A DNA stretch of 9,026 nucleotides. Origin: Giardia intestinalis (taxonomy: Eukaryota). Location: the NCBI GenBank assembly GCA_000002435.2, contig AACB03000012.1; one strand, given 5' to 3'. The notes under the pieces were generated by a model. It was not told the origin of the DNA. It worked only from the letters and a program-made list of their open reading frames with translations, and did not search any database. Positions 1-9,026 of this stretch are shown here, one piece after another. Every line of letters starts with the position of its first letter. Positions within the stretch are counted from its first letter, which is position 1. Position numbers and translations under genes: made by a program.

Positions 1-1146
1 TGTCTGTTTGATTAATTCGTTAGCAGAGGTAGACACATGTGGAGCAGGTTGGTGAGGAGCCAGTTCCTTGAGAGTCTGTTCTGGTCGAGGTTGTTCGCAA
101 GAAGGAGTTCTAGACCTCTTAGAAGAGTGCATAACTAAAGAGTCCGATGGGCTATGGGTTTCCTCATAGGTCTCCTCCGGCTGCTCCGCCAGTAAGTCGC
201 ACGTTTCAAATTCGTCTAGCTGACCTTCGCAACCAGGCTCATCCGGAAAATCTAACGGTTTATGTGCCCGTTTAATCGTGGATCGCGACAGGGTAATAAC
301 GTGAGCTGGACTGGCGGGCTGAGGACAGAAACCTTTCGAGGAATCGCTAGATAGTAAACCCGGCTCTCTGGCAGTAGCGAATGTCATAGTGACCTCTGGA
401 ACCATAGTGCTCTGAGCTGAATTTGGTCTGGAGAGCTGAGTAGTAGAAGATACTGCTGGTGTTTCAGAGATGTCCATCAAGCTGCTGAGTACTGTTGTAT
501 GGTCCTGGAGTGGTTTATCAAACGACTTGCTTTCTAAATTAATAGTATTAATAGTTGATGGGTCAGCAAGAAAGTTTCGATGATGTGGATTTTCAACCAC
601 GTGAGAATCAGCTGCAAATGTCAAAATCATCTGAGTTACAGTTACATCTTCGTCTAGTGTACTTTCAGTAGAGCTTCTTGATTGGACAGAAGAGCTTTCC
701 TTAGAACCTAAAGTAGTAGAGGATAGAACTTGAGGATGCTCACCAGCGTTTTCCTGGGCAATTGATGAATACTGATCTTGAGAATTTTGTTTAGGCACTT
801 CATTGGAAGAATGCTTGATTAAAAATGAAGACTCGTGAGTTAAGGGCCTAGATAACGAATTTTCTTCTGCCTTATTTTGTGAATGCATAAAGTTCTCAAT
901 CAAAATATCGTAAGAAGTATCTCCATTACCATAAACATCTGTATTTAGCAAAGTATCCTCACACACCGTGTCTTCTGCCAAGGGCTTCTTTTGGTTTGTT
1001 CTCGATGCATCGGTAGGTTTTAATTTCCGTAAAGGTGGAAGGGATGATAAGGAATACGTTAGAACAAGCTCACTAACAGGTACATCTTCATTATCACAAG
1101 CTGGAGTAAGTACTCCCTCATGTATATCGTTAACTACAAGAAGGTC
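1..1146 (-). CDS. Non-repetitive, S/T/E/D-rich segment of a large repetitive protein. It looks disordered and matches no domain I recognise. It lies C-terminal to the repeat domain, and the frame continues past position 1 with no stop in the window.
   Basis: The minus-strand frame using plus triplets 1-3, 4-6 and onward contains no TTA, CTA or TCA triplet across all 382 codons from 1146 to 1, so no stop. I checked this twice by hand. The same phase on the plus strand is loaded with TAA, TAG and TGA. The translation, read 5' to 3' on the minus strand, begins DLLVVNDIHEGVLTPACDNEDVPVSELVLTYSLSSPSTLRKLKPTDASRTNQKKPLAEDTVCEDTLLNTDVYGNGDTSYDILIENFMHSQNKAEENSLSRPLTHESSFLIKHSSNEVPKQNSQDQYSSIAQENAGEHPQVLSSTTLGSKESSSVQSRSSTESTLDEDVTVTQMILTFAADSHVVENPHHRNFLADPSTINTINLESKSFDKPLQDHTTVLSSLMDISETPAVSSTTQLSRPNSAQSTMVPEVTMTFATAREPGLLSSDSSKGFCPQPASPAHVITLSRSTIKRAHKPLDFPDEPGCEGQLDEFETCDLLAEQPEETYEETHSPSDSLVMHSSKRSRTPSCEQPRPEQTLKELAPHQPAPHVSTSANELIKQT. 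The chance of a stop-free run this long arising by accident is about 1e-8. Confidence 0.7.
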
Positions 1147-4100
1147 TTCGACGGGCTCCGCGGGCTCTGCAAGGCGTGCCTCCTCGGGCTCCTCAACGGG
1201 CGCTTCAGGTTCTTCGACGGGCTCCGCGGGGTCTGCAAGGCGTGCCTCCTCGGGCTCCTCAACGGGCGCTTCAGGTTCTTCGACGGGCTCCGCGGGGTCT
1301 GCAAGGCGTGCCTCCTCGGGCTCCTCAACGGGCGCTTCAGGTTCTTCGACGGGCTCCGCGGGGTCTGCAAGGCGTGCCTCCTCGGGCTCCTCAACGGGCG
1401 CTTCAGGTTCTTCGACGGGCTCCGCGGGGTCTGCAAGGCGTGCCTCCTCGGGCTCCTCAACGGGCGCTTCAGGTTCTTCGACGGGCGCCTCTTGCTGCTC
1501 GGGTTCTTCGACGGGCTCCGCGGGCTCTGCAAGGCGTGCCTCCTCGGGCTCCTCAACGGGCGCTTCAGGTTCTTCGACGGGCTCCGCGGGCTCTGCAAGG
1601 CGTGCCTCCTCGGGCTCCTCAACGGGCGCTTCAGGTTCTTCGACGGGCTCCGCGGGGTCTGCAAGGCGTGCCTCCTCGGGCTCCTCAACGGGCGCTTCAG
1701 GTTCTTCGACGGGCGCCTCTTGCTGCTCGGGTTCTTCGACGGGCTCCGCGGGGTCTGCAAGGCGTGCCTCCTCGGGCTCCTCAACGGGCGCTTCAGGTTC
1801 TTCGACGGGCGCCTCTTGCTGCTCGGGTTCTTCGACGGGCTCCGCGGGGTCTGCAAGGCGTGCCTCCTCGGGCTCCTCAACGGGCGCTTCAGGTTCTTCG
1901 ACGGGCTCCGCGGGGTCTGCAAGGCGTGCCTCCTCGGGCTCCTCAACGGGCGCTTCAGGTTCTTCGACGGGCTCCGCGGGGTCTGCAAGGCGTGCCTCCT
2001 CGGGCTCCTCAACGGGCGCTTCAGGTTCTTCGACGGGCTCCGCGGGCTCTGCAAGGCGTGCCTCCTCGGGCTCCTCAACGGGCGCTTCAGGTTCTTCGAC
2101 GGGCTCCGCGGGGTCTGCAAGGCGTGCCTCCTCGGGCTCCTCAACGGGCGCTTCAGGTTCTTCGACGGGCTCCGCGGGGTCTGCAAGGCGTGCCTCCTCG
2201 GGCTCCTCAACGGGCGCTTCAGGTTCTTCGACGGGCTCCGCGGGGTCTGCAAGGCGTGCCTCCTCGGGCTCCTCAACGGGCGCTTCAGGTTCTTCGACGG
2301 GCTCCGCGGGCTCTGCAAGGCGTGCCTCCTCGGGCTCCTCAACGGGCGCTTCAGGTTCTTCGACGGGCTCCGCGGGCTCTGCAAGGCGTGCCTCCTCGGG
2401 CTCCTCAACGGGCGCTTCAGGTTCTTCGACGGGCTCCGCGGGCTCTGCAAGGCGTGCCTCCTCGGGCTCCTCAACGGGCGCTTCAGGTTCTTCGACGGGC
2501 TCCGCGGGCTCTGCAAGGCGTGCCTCCTCGGGCTCCTCAACGGGCGCTTCAGGTTCTTCGACGGGCTCCGCGGGTCTGCAAGGCGTGCCTCCTCGGGCTC
2601 CTCAACGGGCGCTTCAGGTTCTTCGACGGGCGCCTCTTGCTGCTCGGGTTCTTCGACGGGCTCCGCGGGCTCTGCAAGGCGTGCCTCCTCGGGCTCCTCA
2701 ACGGGCGCTTCAGGTTCTTCGACGGGCTCCGCGGGCTCTGCAAGGCGTGCCTCCTCGGGCTCCTCAACGGGCGCTTCAGGTTCTTCGACGGGCGCCTCTT
2801 GCTGCTCGGGTTCTTCGACGGGCTCCGCGGGTCTGCAAGGCGTGCCTCCTCGGGCTCCTCAACGGGCGCTTCAGGTTCTTCGACGGGCTCCGCGGGGTCT
2901 GCAAGGCGTGCCTCCTCGGGCTCCTCAACGGGCGCTTCAGGTTCTTCGACGGGCTCTGCAAGGCGTGCCTCCTCGGGCTCCTCAACGGGCGCTTCAGGTT
3001 CTTCGACGGGCTCCGCGGGCTCTGCAAGGCGTGCCTCCTCGGGCTCCTCAACGGGCGCTTCAGGTTCTTCGACGGGCTCCGCGGGCTCTGCAAGGCGTGC
3101 CTCCTCGGGCTCCTCAACGGGCGCTTCAGGTTCTTCGACGGGCTCCGCGGGCTCTGCAAGGCGTGCCTCCTCGGGCTCCTCAACGGGCGCTTCAGGTTCT
3201 TCGACGGGCGCCTCTTGCTGCTCGGGTTCTTCGACGGGCTCCGCGGGGTCTGCAAGGCGTGCCTCCTCGGGCTCCTCAACGGGCGCTTCAGGTTCTTCGA
3301 CGGGCTCCGCGGGGTCTGCAAGGCGTGCCTCCTCGGGCTCCTCAACGGGCGCTTCAGGTTCTTCGACGGGCTCCGCGGGGTCTGCAAGGCGTGCCTCCTC
3401 GGGCTCCTCAACGGGCGCTTCAGGTTCTTCGACGGGCTCCGCGGGGTCTGCAAGGCGTGCCTCCTCGGGCTCCTCAACGGGCGCTTCAGGTTCTTCGACG
3501 GGCTCTGCAAGGCGTGCCTCCTCGGGCTCCTCAACGGGCGCTTCAGGTTCTTCGACGGGCTCCGCGGGCTCTGCAAGGCGTGCCTCCTCGGGCTCCTCAA
3601 CGGGCGCTTCAGGTTCTTCGACGGGCGCCTCTTGCTGCTCGGGTTCTTCGACGGGCTCCGCGGGCTCTGCAAGGCGTGCCTCCTCGGGCTCCTCAACGGG
3701 CGCTTCAGGTTCTTCGACGGGCGCCTCTTGCTGCTCGGGTTCTTCGACGGGCTCCGCGGGGTCTGCAAGGCGTGCCTCCTCGGGCTCCTCAACGGGCGCT
3801 TCAGGTTCTTCGACGGGCTCCGCGGGCTCTGCAAGGCGTGCCTCCTCGGGCTCCTCAACGGGCGCTTCAGGTTCTTCGACGGGCGCCTCTTGCTGCTCGG
3901 GTTCTTCGACGGGCTCCGCGGGCTCTGCAAGGCGTGCCTCCTCGGGCTCCTCAACGGGCGCTTCAGGTTCTTCGACGGGCTCCGCGGGGTCTGCAAGGCG
4001 TGCCTCCTCGGGCTCCTCAACGGGCGCTTCAGGTTCTTCGACGGGCGCCTCTTGCTGCTCGGGTTCTTCGACGGGCTCCGCGGGGTCTGCAAGGCGTGCC

Positions 4101-7100
4101 TCCTCGGGCTCCTCAACGGGCGCTTCAGGTTCTTCGACGGGCTCCGCGGGCTCTGCAAGGCGTGCCTCCTCGGGCTCCTCAACGGGCGCTTCAGGTTCTT
4201 CGACGGGCTCCGCGGGCTCTGCAAGGCGTGCCTCCTCGGGCTCCTCAACGGGCGCTTCAGGTTCTTCGACGGGCTCCGCGGGCTCTGCAAGGCGTGCCTC
4301 CTCGGGCTCCTCAACGGGCGCTTCAGGTTCTTCGACGGGCGCCTCTTGCTGCTCGGGTTCTTCGACGGGCTCCGCGGGGTCTGCAAGGCGTGCCTCCTCG
4401 GGCTCCTCAACGGGCGCTTCAGGTTCTTCGACGGGCTCCGCGGGCTCTGCAAGGCGTGCCTCCTCGGGCTCCTCAACGGGCGCTTCAGGTTCTTCGACGG
4501 GCTCCGCGGGCTCTGCAAGGCGTGCCTCCTCGGGCTCCTCAACGGGCGCTTCAGGTTCTTCGACGGGCTCTGCAAGGCGTGCCTCCTCGGGCTCCTCAAC
4601 GGGCGCTTCAGGTTCTTCGACGGGCTCCGCGGGCTCTGCAAGGCGTGCCTCCTCGGGCTCCTCAACGGGCGCTTCAGGTTCTTCGACGGGCTCTGCAAGG
4701 CGTGCCTCCTCGGGCTCCTCAACGGGCGCTTCAGGTTCTTCGACGGGCTCCGCGGGCTCTGCAAGGCGTGCCTCCTCGGGCTCCTCAACGGGCGCTTCAG
4801 GTTCTTCGACGGGCTCTGCAAGGCGTGCCTCCTCGGGCTCCTCAACGGGCGCTTCAGGTTCTTCGACGGGCTCTGCAAGGCGTGCCTCCTCGGGCTCCTC
4901 AACGGGCGCTTCAGGTTCTTCGACGGGCTCCGCGGGCTCTGCAAGGCGTGCCTCCTCGGGCTCCTCAACGGGCGCTTCAGGTTCTTCGACGGGCTCTGCA
5001 AGGCGTGCCTCCTCGGGCTCCTCAACGGGCGCTTCAGGTTCTTCGACGGGCTCCGCGGGCTCTGCAAGGCGTGCCTCCTCGGGCTCCTCAACGGGCGCTT
5101 CAGGTTCTTCGACGGGCTCTGCAAGGCGTGCCTCCTCGGGCTCCTCAACGGGCGCTTCAGGTTCTTCGACGGGCTCCGCGGGCTCTGCAAGGCGTGCCTC
5201 CTCGGGCTCCTCAACGGGCGCTTCAGGTTCTTCGACGGGCTCTGCAAGGCGTGCCTCCTCGGGCTCCTCAACGGGCGCTTCAGGTTCTTCGACGGGCTCC
5301 GCGGGCTCTGCAAGGCGTGCCTCCTCGGGCTCCTCAACGGGCGCTTCAGGTTCTTCGACGGGCTCCGCGGGCTCTGCAAGGCGTGCCTCCTCGGGCTCCT
5401 CAACGGGCGCTTCAGGTTCTTCGACGGGCTCCGCGGGCTCTGCAAGGCGTGCCTCCTCGGGCTCCTCAACGGGCGCTTCAGGTTCTTCGACGGGCTCCGC
5501 GGGGTCTGCAAGGCGTGCCTCCTCGGGCTCCTCAACGGGCGCTTCAGGTTCTTCGACGGGCGCCTCTTGCTGCTCGGGTTCTTCGACGGGCTCCGCGGGG
5601 TCTGCAAGGCGTGCCTCCTCGGGCTCCTCAACGGGCGCTTCAGGTTCTTCGACGGGCTCCGCGGGGTCTGCAAGGCGTGCCTCCTCGGGCTCCTCAACGG
5701 GCGCTTCAGGTTCTTCGACGGGCTCCGCGGGGTCTGCAAGGCGTGCCTCCTCGGGCTCCTCAACGGGCGCTTCAGGTTCTTCGACGGGCGCCTCTTGCTG
5801 CTCGGGTTCTTCGACGGGCTCCGCGGGCTCTGCAAGGCGTGCCTCCTCGGGCTCCTCAACGGGCGCTTCAGGTTCTTCGACGGGCTCCGCGGGCTCTGCA
5901 AGGCGTGCCTCCTCGGGCTCCTCAACGGGCGCTTCAGGTTCTTCGACGGGCGCCTCTTGCTGCTCGGGTTCTTCGACGGGCTCCGCGGGCTCTGCAAGGC
6001 GTGCCTCCTCGGGCTCCTCAACGGGCGCTTCAGGTTCTTCGACGGGCTCCGCGGGGTCTGCAAGGCGTGCCTCCTCGGGCTCCTCAACGGGCGCTTCAGG
6101 TTCTTCGACGGGCGCCTCTTGCTGCTCGGGTTCTTCGACGGGCTCCGCGGGGTCTGCAAGGCGTGCCTCCTCGGGCTCCTCAACGGGCGCTTCAGGTTCT
6201 TCGACGGGCGCCTCTTGCTGCTCGGGTTCTTCGACGGGCTCCGCGGGCTCTGCAAGGCGTGCCTCCTCGGGCTCCTCAACGGGCGCTTCAGGTTCTTCGA
6301 CGGGCTCCGCGGGCTCTGCAAGGCGTGCCTCCTCGGGCTCCTCAACGGGCGCTTCAGGTTCTTCGACGGGCTCCGCGGGGTCTGCAAGGCGTGCCTCCTC
6401 GGGCTCCTCAACGGGCGCTTCAGGTTCTTCGACGGGCTCCGCGGGCTCTGCAAGGCGTGCCTCCTCGGGCTCCTCAACGGGCGCTTCAGGTTCTTCGACG
6501 GGCTCCGCGGGGTCTGCAAGGCGTGCCTCCTCGGGCTCCTCAACGGGCGCTTCAGGTTCTTCGACGGGCGCCTCTTGCTGCTCGGGTTCTTCGACGGGCT
6601 CCGCGGGCTCTGCAAGGCGTGCCTCCTCGGGCTCCTCAACGGGCGCTTCAGGTTCTTCGACGGGCTCCGCGGGGTCTGCAAGGCGTGCCTCCTCGGGCTC
6701 CTCAACGGGCGCTTCAGGTTCTTCGACGGGCTCCGCGGGGTCTGCAAGGCGTGCCTCCTCGGGCTCCTCAACGGGCGCTTCAGGTTCTTCGACGGGCTCC
6801 GCGGGGTCTGCAAGGCGTGCCTCCTCGGGCTCCTCAACGGGCGCTTCAGGTTCTTCGACGGGCGCCTCTTGCTGCTCGGGTTCTTCGACGGGCTCCGCGG
6901 GCTCTGCAAGGCGTGCCTCCTCGGGCTCCTCAACGGGCGCTTCAGGTTCTTCGACGGGCTCCGCGGGCTCTGCAAGGCGTGCCTCCTCGGGCTCCTCAAC
7001 GGGCGCTTCAGGTTCTTCGACGGGCTCCGCGGGGTCTGCAAGGCGTGCCTCCTCGGGCTCCTCAACGGGCGCTTCAGGTTCTTCGACGGGCTCCGCGGGG

Positions 7101-9026
7101 TCTGCAAGGCGTGCCTCCTCGGGCTCCTCAACGGGCGCTTCAGGTTCTTCGACGGGCTCCGCGGGGTCTGCAAGGCGTGCCTCCTCGGGCTCCTCAACGG
7201 GCGCTTCAGGTTCTTCGACGGGCGCCTCTTGCTGCTCGGGTTCTTCGACGGGCTCCGCGGGCTCTGCAAGGCGTGCCTCCTCGGGCTCCTCAACGGGCGC
7301 TTCAGGTTCTTCGACGGGCTCCGCGGGCTCTGCAAGGCGTGCCTCCTCGGGCTCCTCAACGGGCGCTTCAGGTTCTTCGACGGGCGCCTCTTGCTGCTCG
7401 GGTTCTTCGACGGGCTCCGCGGGGTCTGCAAGGCGTGCCTCCTCGGGCTCCTCAACGGGCGCTTCAGGTTCTTCGACGGGCGCCTCTTGCTGCTCGGGTT
7501 CTTCGACGGGCTCCGCGGGGTCTGCAAGGCGTGCCTCCTCGGGCTCCTCAACGGGCGCTTCAGGTTCTTCGACGGGCGCCTCTTGCTGCTCGGGTTCTTC
7601 GACGGGCTCCGCGGGGTCTGCAAGGCGTGCCTCCTCGGGCTCCTCAACGGGCGCTTCAGGTTCTTCGACGGGCGCCTCTTGCTGCTCGGGTTCTTCGACG
7701 GGCTCCGCGGGGTCTGCAAGGCGTGCCTCCTCGGGCTCCTCAACGGGCGCTTCAGGTTCTTCGACGGGCGCCTCTTGCTGCTCGGGTTCTTCGACGGGCT
7801 CCGCGGGGTCTGCAAGGCGTGCCTCCTCGGGCTCCTCAACGGGCGCTTCAGGTTCTTCGACGGGCGCCTCTTGCTGCTCGGGTTCTTCGACGGGCTCCGC
7901 GGGCTCTGCAAGGCGTGCCTCCTCGGGCTCCTCAACGGGCGCTTCAGGTTCTTCGACGGGCTCCGCGGGCTCTGCAAGGCGTGCCTCCTCGGGCTCCTCA
8001 ACGGGCGCTTCAGGTTCTTCGACGGGCTCCGCGGGGTCTGCAAGGCGTGCCTCCTCGGGCTCCTCAACGGGCGCTTCAGGTTCTTCGACGGGCTCCGCGG
8101 GGTCTGCAAGGCGTGCCTCCTCGGGCTCCTCAACGGGCGCTTCAGGTTCTTCGACGGGCTCCGCGGGGTCTGCAAGGCGTGCCTCCTCGGGCTCCTCAAC
8201 GGGCGCTTCAGGTTCTTCGACGGGCGCCTCTTGCTGCTCGGGTTCTTCGACGGGCTCCGCGGGGTCTGCAAGGCGTGCCTCCTCGGGCTCCTCAACGGGC
8301 GCTTCAGGTTCTTCGACGGGCGCCTCTTGCTGCTCGGGTTCTTCGACGGGCTCCGCGGGGTCTGCAAGGCGTGCCTCCTCGGGCTCCTCAACGGGCGCTT
8401 CAGGTTCTTCGACGGGCGCCTCTTGCTGCTCGGGTTCTTCGACGGGCTCCGCGGGGTCTGCAAGGCGTGCCTCCTCGGGCTCCTCAACGGGCGCTTCAGG
8501 TTCTTCGACGGGCGCCTCTTGCTGCTCGGGTTCTTCGACGGGCTCCGCGGGGTCTGCAAGGCGTGCCTCCTCGGGCTCCTCAACGGGCGCTTCAGGTTCT
8601 TCGACGGGCGCCTCTTGCTGCTCGGGTTCTTCGACGGGCTCCGCGGGTCTGCAAGGCGTGCCTCCTCGGGCTCCTCAACGGGCGCTTCAGGTTCTTCGAC
8701 GGGCTCCGCGGGGTCTGCAAGGCGTGCCTCCTCGGGCTCCTCAACGGGCGCTTCAGGTTCTTCGACGGGCTCCGCGGGGTCTGCAAGGCGTGCCTCCTCG
8801 GGCTCCTCAACGGGCGCTTCAGGTTCTTCGACGGCGCCTCTTGCTGCTCGGGTTCTTCGACGGGCTCCGCGGGGTCTGCAAGGCGTGCCTCCTCGGGCTC
8901 CTCAACGGGCGCTTCAGGTTCTTCGACGGGCGCTCTTGCTGCTCGGTTCTTCGACGGGCTCCGCGGGTCTGCAAGGCGTGCCTCCTCGGGCTCCTCAACG
9001 GGCGCTTCAGGTTCTTCGACGGGCGC
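1147..9026 (-). CDS. Repeat domain of the same protein, read in the acidic frame: (EEPEAPVEEPEEARLA[E/D]PAEPV)n, with 32-aa units inserting EEPEQQEAPV and 19-aa units lacking AEP. It is N-terminal to the flank segment. The true start lies beyond position 9026. The frame is broken in this assembly by single-base homopolymer indels.
   Basis: The reverse complement of the unit, read in phase with the stop-free flank frame, gives codons CCT GAA GCG CCC GTT GAG GAG CCC GAG GAG GCA CGC CTT GCA GAG CCC GCG GAG CCC GTC GAA GAA, with no stop and no ATG, GTG, TTG or CTG. All unit variants differ by multiples of 3 (66, 96 and 57 bp), which is the pattern of selection on a reading frame. Frame continuity with the flank holds up to the first indel at 2572-2575. 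Beyond that point continuity requires the indels to be errors. Confidence 0.5.
2572..2575. other. Single-base deletion in a homopolymer (CGCGGGTCTG where CGCGGGGTCTG or CGCGGGCTCTG is expected). It shifts the frame.
   Basis: I compared it directly with flanking units. This is where the track ORF 1134..2540 ends and ORF 2549..2767 begins. Confidence 0.9.
2829..2832. other. Single-base deletion in a homopolymer (G4 to G3) that shifts the frame.
   Basis: GGCTCCGCGGGTCTGCAAGG at 2821-2840 compared with the canonical unit. This indel bounds the 1935-aa track ORF. Confidence 0.9.
4558..5352. repeat. Higher-order repeat block in which 57-bp and 66-bp units alternate as a 123-bp super-unit. The order is S C S C S S C S C S C S C, and every canonical unit here carries the C allele (CGCGGGCTCTG).
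   Basis: I traced the unit boundaries by hand: short units at 4558, 4681, 4804, 4861, 4984, 5107 and 5230, with canonical units between them. Only two other short units occur in the window (about 2950 and about 3501). Confidence 0.8.
7375..7950. repeat. Run of six consecutive 96-bp variant units.
   Basis: GCGCCTCTTGC recurs at exactly 96-bp spacing (7384, 7480, 7576, 7672, 7768, 7864). The first five units carry the G allele. Confidence 0.85.
8215..8693. repeat. Run of five consecutive 96-bp variant units. The last one carries the single-base deletion at 8645-8648.
   Basis: Insert motifs lie at 8224, 8320, 8416, 8512 and 8608, at 96-bp spacing. Long units dominate the high-coordinate end of the array, which is the N-terminal-proximal end of the minus-strand gene. 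Confidence 0.85.
8645..8648. other. Single-base deletion in a homopolymer (G4 to G3) that shifts the frame.
   Basis: CCGCGGGTCT at 8641-8650. This indel bounds the 1935-aa track ORF on its upstream side. Confidence 0.9.
8831..8968. other. Cluster of four more single-base homopolymer contractions: ACGGCGCC at about 8833 (G3 to G2), GGGCGCTCTTG at about 8933 (CC to C), CTCGGTTC at about 8945 (G3 to G2), and CCGCGGGTCT at about 8965 (G4 to G3).
   Basis: I compared each against the consensus unit. Five of the seven indels in the window fall in the final 200 bp, which suggests degraded base quality at a contig or read end. Confidence 0.85.

Follow-up and report, generated by a model that had tools for sequence, protein, structure and literature searches.

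A 7.9-kb coding minisatellite that probably lies within one large, Giardia-specific gene

The window analysed here, a stretch of 9,026 nucleotides from Giardia intestinalis (contig AACB03000012.1), consists of a unique flank followed by a head-to-tail minisatellite array. The array extends from about position 1145 to 9026, where the end of the window cuts its last unit, and Tandem Repeats Finder reports it as a single array with periods of 66, 132 and 162 nt. Its units of 66, 57 and 30 nt, repeated over 7.9 kb, fall within the ~10-100 nt expected of a coding minisatellite, and its G+C content is 69%, compared with 38-49% in the flank. Two minus-strand readings of the array recur below, and we refer to them as the acidic and the basic frame. 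The main features are as follows.

1-1140, minus strand: unique coding flank of 380 codons, Ser/Thr-rich, continuing the acidic frame of the array and belonging to the C-terminal region of a mucin-like protein
886-888, minus strand: ATG of Met85, where reference model XP_001704184.1 / KAE8302722.1 begins and three WB RNA-seq contigs have their exact 5′ end
1134-1136, minus strand: TAG stop of the basic frame at the array/flank junction, which terminates the N-terminal reference model KAE8302723.1 (P0010, ending ...RSPSKTFL)
1145-9026, minus strand: coding tandem array, encoding ...APVEEPEEARLA[E/D]PAEPVEEPE(QQEAPVEEPE)... and running off the window at 9026

The array unit is free of stop codons in all three plus-strand frames, and on the minus strand a stop occurs in one frame only. 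Because several frames are open, the array alone cannot settle the reading frame; the flank does so. The minus-strand acidic frame (...PVEEPEEARLAEPAEPVE|DLLVVNDIHEG...) stays open for 380 codons into the flank, to position 1, whereas the longest open stretch among 2000 shuffles of the flank was 212 codons. The plus-strand frames end within 935-1134, and the minus-strand basic frame ends at 1134-1136. As assembled, the acidic frame shifts among all three minus-strand frames and none of these is open over the whole window; with seven deleted bases restored, the window becomes one stop-free minus-strand frame of 3011 codons, of which 2629 lie in the array. The mechanical list of open reading frames (ORFs) gives only two basic-frame ORFs on the minus strand of window 1134-8583, of 468 and 1935 aa with TTG starts. 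The acidic frame is missing from that list because it holds no ATG, GTG or TTG codon, a trap for automated annotation in which ORF callers would choose the wrong frame. Tryptic peptides predicted for the acidic frame of the array are LA[E/D]PAEPVEEPEAPVEEPEEAR, LAEPAEPVEEPEAPVEEPEEAR, LADPAEPVEEPEAPVEEPEEAR and LAEPVEEPEAPVEEPEEAR. The flank itself is uneven, with an observed/expected CpG ratio of 0.89 in 1-400 and 0.50 in 401-1140, and G+C of 50% and 39%, respectively.

An exhaustive HMMER search identified the gene to which the flank belongs. Flank residues 85-380 are 100% identical to residues 1-296 of the Giardia intestinalis WB C6 'Mucin-like protein' (P0006; XP_001704184.1 / KAE8302722.1 / A8BYJ8), which is annotated on a 1.97-Mb contig; a word-indexed homologue search with the flank protein returned no match. 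At the nucleotide level, window 1-888 matches WB RNA-seq contigs with 100% identity throughout the 888 nt shared, and the 1140-nt flank is 99.2% identical to sub-assemblage AII and 84.8% identical to assemblage E. By sequence identity, the window comes from assemblage AI, from WB or a near-identical line. A vertebrate source, suggested at first by the disordered, Ser-rich flank, was rejected on the identity of this protein. Adjoining the mucin-like model in the WB reference is a second model, KAE8302723.1, which consists of an N-terminal region followed by the units q-D-E-D-D*-E. The fifth of these is a 65-nt unit that pushes the model into the basic frame, so that it ends at the TAG at 1134-1136. 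The two reference models lie 245 nt apart, and the acidic frame stays open throughout this interval.

Orthologous contigs join what the WB reference separates. An Illumina MEGAHIT contig resembling AII (L005) encodes a single ORF of 2178 aa (P0015), made up of an N-terminal part of ~830 aa, ~2.5 acidic-frame repeat units and a C-terminal part of ~1,280 aa. In assemblage E (isolate P15, contig L004), a single 2207-aa ORF (P0016) likewise joins both unique halves, with a different acidic Pro/Glu unit, PAEQPEAPIEEP(EEP)VEEQ, at the position of the array. The same neighbouring genes surround the locus in both contigs. The frame of the array is thus continuous with unique coding sequence, on the flank side in the window and on both sides in the AII and E proteins. 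The two WB reference models, KAE8302723.1 and KAE8302722.1 / XP_001704184.1, are most likely one gene, which a collapsed 5-unit array with one frameshift in the WB reference chromosome would have split into two 'mucin-like protein' models. The full gene would comprise an N-terminal region of ~830 aa that lies outside the window, an array of at least 2,629 aa and a Ser/Thr/Pro-rich C-terminal region of ~1,280 aa, the first 380 aa of which would correspond to window 1140-1. As these three parts sum, the protein would reach at least ~4,750 aa. Taken as a whole, the locus is probably best explained as a coding minisatellite in the middle of a single large gene specific to Giardia, translated from the minus strand in its acidic frame.

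Two side observations concern the N-terminal half of this gene. A Logan contig (L007, SRR17450159; protein P0011) covers the N-terminal half with a frameshift near residue 555 relative to the WB model and the AII protein, and ends before the array. The models also differ in their start codon: the WB model begins at an internal Met (MRTSRRDSG...), while the AII and E proteins and one Logan contig begin 22-28 residues upstream (MRTGGRSRPQ...).

Both halves of the gene, and the linker between the two reference models, evolve as coding sequence under purifying selection. In the comparison of AII with E, the N-terminal region has a ratio of nonsynonymous to synonymous substitution rates (dN/dS) of 0.10; the part matching the window flank has 0.26, and the remaining C-terminal sequence 0.20. 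The stretch of 84 codons from the array to Met85, which neither reference model includes, is free of gaps and stops and gives a dN/dS of 0.35 between WB and E. An earlier note on this DNA, made from the sequence alone, had argued that the array is translated and under selection and left acidic versus basic undecided. That argument stands, and the strand and frame can now be assigned from the 380-codon flank ORF, the single ORF in each orthologue and the flank dN/dS of 0.10-0.26.

Splitting the array at the anchor GGTTCTTCGACGG gave 105 long units, which measure 66 or 57 nt (65 nt if damaged), and 32 inserted 30-nt modules. The D unit (66 nt, with CGGGGTC, encoding Asp) is present in 50 intact copies and the E unit (66 nt, with CGGGCTC, encoding Glu) in 42. 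The s unit, of which there are 9, is 57 nt long through a 9-nt deletion that takes out Pro-Ala-Glu, and the q module (30 nt, encoding EQQEAPVEEP) has 30 intact copies. Across 7.9 kb the only substitution is at a single C/G site, read as Glu/Asp in the acidic and as Ser/Thr in the basic frame. The units do not follow a random order. In permutations, two-unit tandem super-repeats (P < 0.0002), clustering of s (P 0.0004) and like-neighbour pairs (P 0.002) were all in excess, and three higher-order blocks stand out.

4488-5282, minus strand: block EsEsEssEsEsEs with a 123-nt super-unit, containing 7 of the 9 57-nt units
7401-7880, minus strand: block (Dq)x5 with a 96-nt super-unit
8145-8624, minus strand: second (Dq)x5 block

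The order of units at the far end of the array, on the 9026 side, differs from the order q-D-E found at the N-terminal junction of the WB model; because the two do not fit, more array is expected beyond the window. Much of what the earlier note had described is recovered here: more than 100 near-identical units over ~7.9 kb (with a start near 1145 by Tandem Repeats Finder, against the 1141 it gave), the sole C/G polymorphism with its frame-dependent residues, and an array that extends past 9026. Its 66- and 57-nt variants are likewise seen, whereas its 96-nt variant resolves into a 66-nt unit plus a q module. Exact searches for the unit in bacterial and archaeal genomes, viral contigs and Joint Genome Institute (JGI) metagenomes gave 0 matches, and a source in prokaryotes, viruses or those metagenomes was rejected; Rfam and tRNA scans of the window gave none. 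The literature that we searched (Giardia mucin-like proteins, minisatellites, long-read assemblies and the supplement of a localisation atlas) does not describe the locus.

The length of 131 of the 137 complete units and modules is a multiple of three. The other six carry seven one-base deletions, all within runs of G or C, which break the frame. The claim of the earlier note that all variants come in multiples of three and keep the frame does not hold for the sequence as assembled, in which it had missed units of 65, 29 and 28 nt. The six, to which no strand is assigned, are listed below; a k-mer specific to the 65-nt unit is CTCCGCGGGTCTGCAAGG.

2552-2616: 65-nt unit, GGGG to GGG, frame shift
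2809-2873: 65-nt unit, GGGG to GGG, frame shift
8625-8689: 65-nt unit, GGGG to GGG, frame shift
8822-8850: 29-nt q module, GGGC to GGC, one deletion
8917-8944: 28-nt q module, GCC to GC and GGG to GG, two deletions
8945-9009: 65-nt unit, GGGG to GGG, one deletion

Most likely, the seven deletions are homopolymer errors that stayed uncorrected in a long-read consensus. Four of them strike GGGG, the longest run in the unit, which is found in D units only and starts at the polymorphic D/E site; a consensus caller presented with a mixture of GGGGTC and GGGCTC reads may favour GGGTC over a substitution. Moreover, two WB-derived sequences disagree on which unit is damaged, as the penultimate unit is 65 nt long in the reference model and an intact 66-nt D unit in the window (1208-1273). 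A 454-based contig of isolate DHA2 (L006; AHGT01000123.1, 1-240) that ends inside the array holds a 67-nt unit, GAGCCCCGCG, with one additional C at the same homopolymer and polymorphic site, and the Illumina-only AII contig has no frameshift. Short reads would find no unique placement inside the array and hence could not correct deletions there. Consistently, homopolymer errors in PacBio data truncated WB genes and were fixed only where Illumina reads supported the change, and reads that failed to map went into a separate assembly of 33 small contigs 'enriched with repeats' (Xu et al. 2020, PMC7000408). The window may itself be one of these unplaced contigs. Five of the seven deletions lie within the last 400 nt of the window, a cluster that fits a thinly covered contig end. 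The locus is a test case for polishing errors inside arrays.

Comparison among lineages provides direct evidence that the array evolves in concert. All 105 WB long units read GAA CCT GAA, whereas every AII unit seen, three in the DHA2 contig and one in the MEGAHIT contig, reads GAA CCC GAA. A synonymous difference that is fixed across all copies within a lineage indicates concerted evolution. In assemblage E the unit has been wholly replaced, while the position, composition and high G+C (62%, compared with 45% in the rest of the gene) are kept. Units are therefore more alike within than between lineages, with CCT in AI, CCC in AII and another unit in E. From this pattern, the array would expand, contract and homogenise by replication slippage together with unequal exchange or gene conversion. 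The clustered variants and blocks fit slippage and unequal exchange that duplicate local blocks, and would be hard to obtain by random mis-assembly. The number of units differs strongly among assemblies, from ~2.5 in the MEGAHIT contig and 5 in the WB reference gene model to at least 105 here, although these copy-number differences are confounded by collapse. The earlier note had anticipated both points: concerted evolution is supported by the CCT/CCC difference, the different E unit at the same position and the clustering of variants, and the warning that assemblers collapse such loci by the contrast among ~2.5, 5 and at least 105 units. Given that the units are sub-assemblage-specific, the locus is also a candidate high-resolution typing marker.

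Several observations weigh against a long, translated array within a single gene. The WB reference chromosome has only 5 units, and the length and unit order reported here are those of an assembly. The 65-nt unit recurs, with four copies in the window and another in the reference model, and could be a real variant that spread. Three Logan assemblies (L001-L003) of WB1B trophozoite RNA-seq runs, from Ansell et al. 2015 as given in PMC5224939 Table 1, show that the C-terminal ORF is transcribed; these three independent assemblies start exactly at the Met85 ATG (window 888) and include the 1193-aa C-terminal ORF in full. Their shared first position is suggestive of an internal or separate start of transcription at Met85, ~250 nt downstream of the array, although the look-up by exact product may bias the result. 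No array-containing transcript was found by that look-up, which searches by exact protein product and returns only matching contigs. At the protein level, the N-terminal region looks foldable over residues ~100-430, yet AlphaFold2 run on the N-terminal 430 aa as a single sequence gave a mean predicted local distance difference test (pLDDT) score of 39.5, with only a helical hairpin above 70; there are three close orthologues only, hence no deeper alignment for a structure model. Finally, the spacer function proposed below comes from composition only, and our searches found no localisation or proteomic support for it.

In light of these observations, alternative explanations must be weighed. 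The one that survives best, though we consider it unlikely, is that both lengths are real and that the tetraploid trophozoite carries alleles of ~5 and >100 units that were sampled by different assemblies. Allelic differences in repeat number are known for Giardia vspA6, which counts in its favour. Intra-isolate structural variation has also been predicted in WB from nanopore reads (PMC7048089). However, heterozygosity in WB is very low, at 0.03% or less (PMC7000408 Table 1), and nothing direct at this locus points to two allelic lengths.

Slightly less probable, in our estimate, is that the real WB array has ~5 units and that a long-read assembler over-expanded it to 7.9 kb from noisy reads. 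The reference model, with only six units and modules (q first) between its N-terminal region and the flank, would agree with such an artefact, as would the fact that the window stops inside the array with 5 of its 7 deletions in the final 400 nt, suggestive of an end with weak support. However, the array of the reference model resembles the first three units of an array fused to its last three, which is the pattern that collapse produces and therefore favours a long array, and the DHA2 contig breaks within the array as well. In addition, the four unit types follow a non-periodic and significantly structured order that over-expansion would hardly yield, and a consensus with no substitution errors over 7.9 kb implies deep read support. 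Assemblers usually collapse rather than expand tandem arrays, which also counts against over-expansion. PMC6868369 is cited here alongside this point.

We regard it as improbable that the frameshifts are real in the WB lineage, which would then make two separate proteins, one comprising the N-terminal region and the repeat and ending out of frame, the other the C-terminal part from Met85, with an array that is decaying or newly non-functional. The recurrence of the 65-nt unit (four window copies and one in the reference model) and the fact that three WB RNA-seq contigs have the Met85 ATG as their very first codon are what this explanation would predict. The very short 5′ untranslated regions of Giardia mRNAs count for it too. 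On the other hand, the window and the reference differ on which unit is 65 nt long, and homopolymer indels occur only in assemblies from indel-prone platforms, with none in the Illumina contig. The linker separating the two models shows coding evolution (dN/dS 0.35, with neither gaps nor stops), and an array with zero substitutions beyond the C/G site shows no decay. The RNA-seq evidence, in turn, comes from an exact protein match that returns only contigs yielding exactly that product. Lastly, a non-coding satellite, or coding in the plus strand or basic frame, is scarcely credible: these frames are likewise stop-free inside the array and the ORF list names basic-frame ORFs only, but the plus-strand frames run into stops at 935-1134, the basic frame ends with the TAG at 1134-1136 and owes its place on the list solely to the lack of ATG, GTG and TTG in the acidic frame, and the minus-strand acidic frame alone runs on into the flank and both halves of the orthologues.

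With a coding array inside one large gene as the preferred reading, the acidic frame predicts a protein of unusual composition. Glu makes up 39% of the array protein, Pro 22%, Ala 17% and Val 9%. Each unit contributes one Arg; Ser, Thr, Lys, Cys and aromatic residues are absent, and the net charge of the array is about -970. In a charge-hydropathy plot its mean hydropathy (H 0.366, against a boundary of 0.546) places it deep in the disordered region. Outside the array, the N-terminus of the AII protein is basic and polar, with a maximal 10-aa hydropathy of 0.7, and is unlike a signal peptide by hydropathy scan and inspection, with no dedicated predictor used. The same scan shows no convincing membrane segment, as the only hydrophobic 19-mer (1.69) includes Asp and Arg, and the C-terminus reads ...TGRKQRR. 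Pfam searches with the flank, the repeat, the AII protein and both WB reference models found nothing significant, and for the repeat no family reached E of 1 or below; a PDB sequence search with the N-terminal region gave 0 matches. The homologue search with the repeat protein returned only compositional matches to bacterial Pro/Glu linkers (P0002-P0004).

Judging from composition, the array would form an intrinsically disordered, strongly negative, proline-stiffened spacer in a non-secreted protein, and the length of this spacer would be set by copy number. By analogy with titin PEVK or the projection domains of cytoskeletal proteins, its role would most likely be that of an extended, self-repelling polyanionic spacer or entropic spring. 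As a tentative possibility that we hold to be less likely than not to be right in full, WB may make a protein of at least 4,750 aa with a Glu/Pro centre of >2,600 residues and a net charge near -1000, whose length differs between genome copies or isolates and tunes spacing or ion-binding, perhaps in the cytoskeleton, together with a C-terminal isoform from Met85. If so, few proteins of the parasite would match it in size and acidity, and it would be absent from the reference proteome; if the two reference models are one gene, that proteome would be short of ~2,600 residues. The locus predicts a very large, polyanionic, disordered protein.

Several known systems resemble the array in part. The bacterial surface proteins P0002-P0004 carry an (EEPEAPV)n linker before a C-terminal membrane anchor, share the motif EEPEAPVEEPE and plausibly form extended stalks. 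However, they are bacterial and secreted, have 8-12 heptads compared with >2,600 aa here and match with E-values of 1e-7 to 1e-3, and the similarity is presumably compositional and convergent. The PEVK/poly-E region of titin offers an analogy for an extensible spacer, as the Giardia repeat is also Pro/Glu/Val-rich (70% P+E+V), of low complexity and predicted to be disordered. It differs in having 0% Lys, no polyampholyte character, no Pfam match and a 22-aa unit in place of the 26-28-aa PPAK, and is neither a PEVK domain nor homologous to one. Among kinetoplastid repetitive proteins, which include cytoskeletal proteins and antigens, MARP of T. brucei has more than 50 near-identical copies of a 38-aa unit, and its repeats bind microtubules. 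Such proteins share with the Giardia protein a very large size in a protist and nucleotide-identical tandem units that are typically under-assembled, but our homologue searches showed no sequence similarity, and the Giardia repeat is polyanionic.

Within Giardia itself, vspA6/CRP170 and CRP136 contain repeats of 195-nt and 120-nt units, respectively. These are perfect nucleotide repeats within ORFs of the same organism, with reported allelic differences in copy number. They encode Cys-rich, secreted surface proteins with CXXC motifs, whereas the array has no Cys and its protein neither a signal peptide nor a clear anchor; lacking the CXXC domain, signal peptide and CRGKA anchor of VSP and high-cysteine proteins, the array does not belong to the VSP family. 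Another parallel is with mucins, of which human MUC1 has a coding variable number of tandem repeats (VNTR) of 60-nt units in tens to >100 copies. Like mucin VNTRs, the array is an in-frame minisatellite in a large exon, with near-identical units, concerted evolution and collapse in short-read assemblies, and the protein bears a 'mucin-like' database name. Unlike mucins, it has 0% Ser+Thr and thus no Ser/Thr/Pro-rich repeats for O-glycans, is not a Pro/Thr/Ser domain and, by hydropathy scan of the AII protein, shows neither a signal peptide nor a membrane anchor. Its name probably derives from the flanks, which are rich in Ser and Thr (24% S+T), and not from the repeat. As a kind, the locus is a well-known, textbook coding VNTR that leaves current understanding unchallenged. 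The earlier note is right in its broad outline; what is added here is the strand and frame, the organism and gene, the split reference annotation, seven probable homopolymer errors and direct evidence for concerted evolution. The main value of the locus is for typing and for correcting the Giardia annotation; a domain that carries about 1000 negative charges is of modest biological interest.

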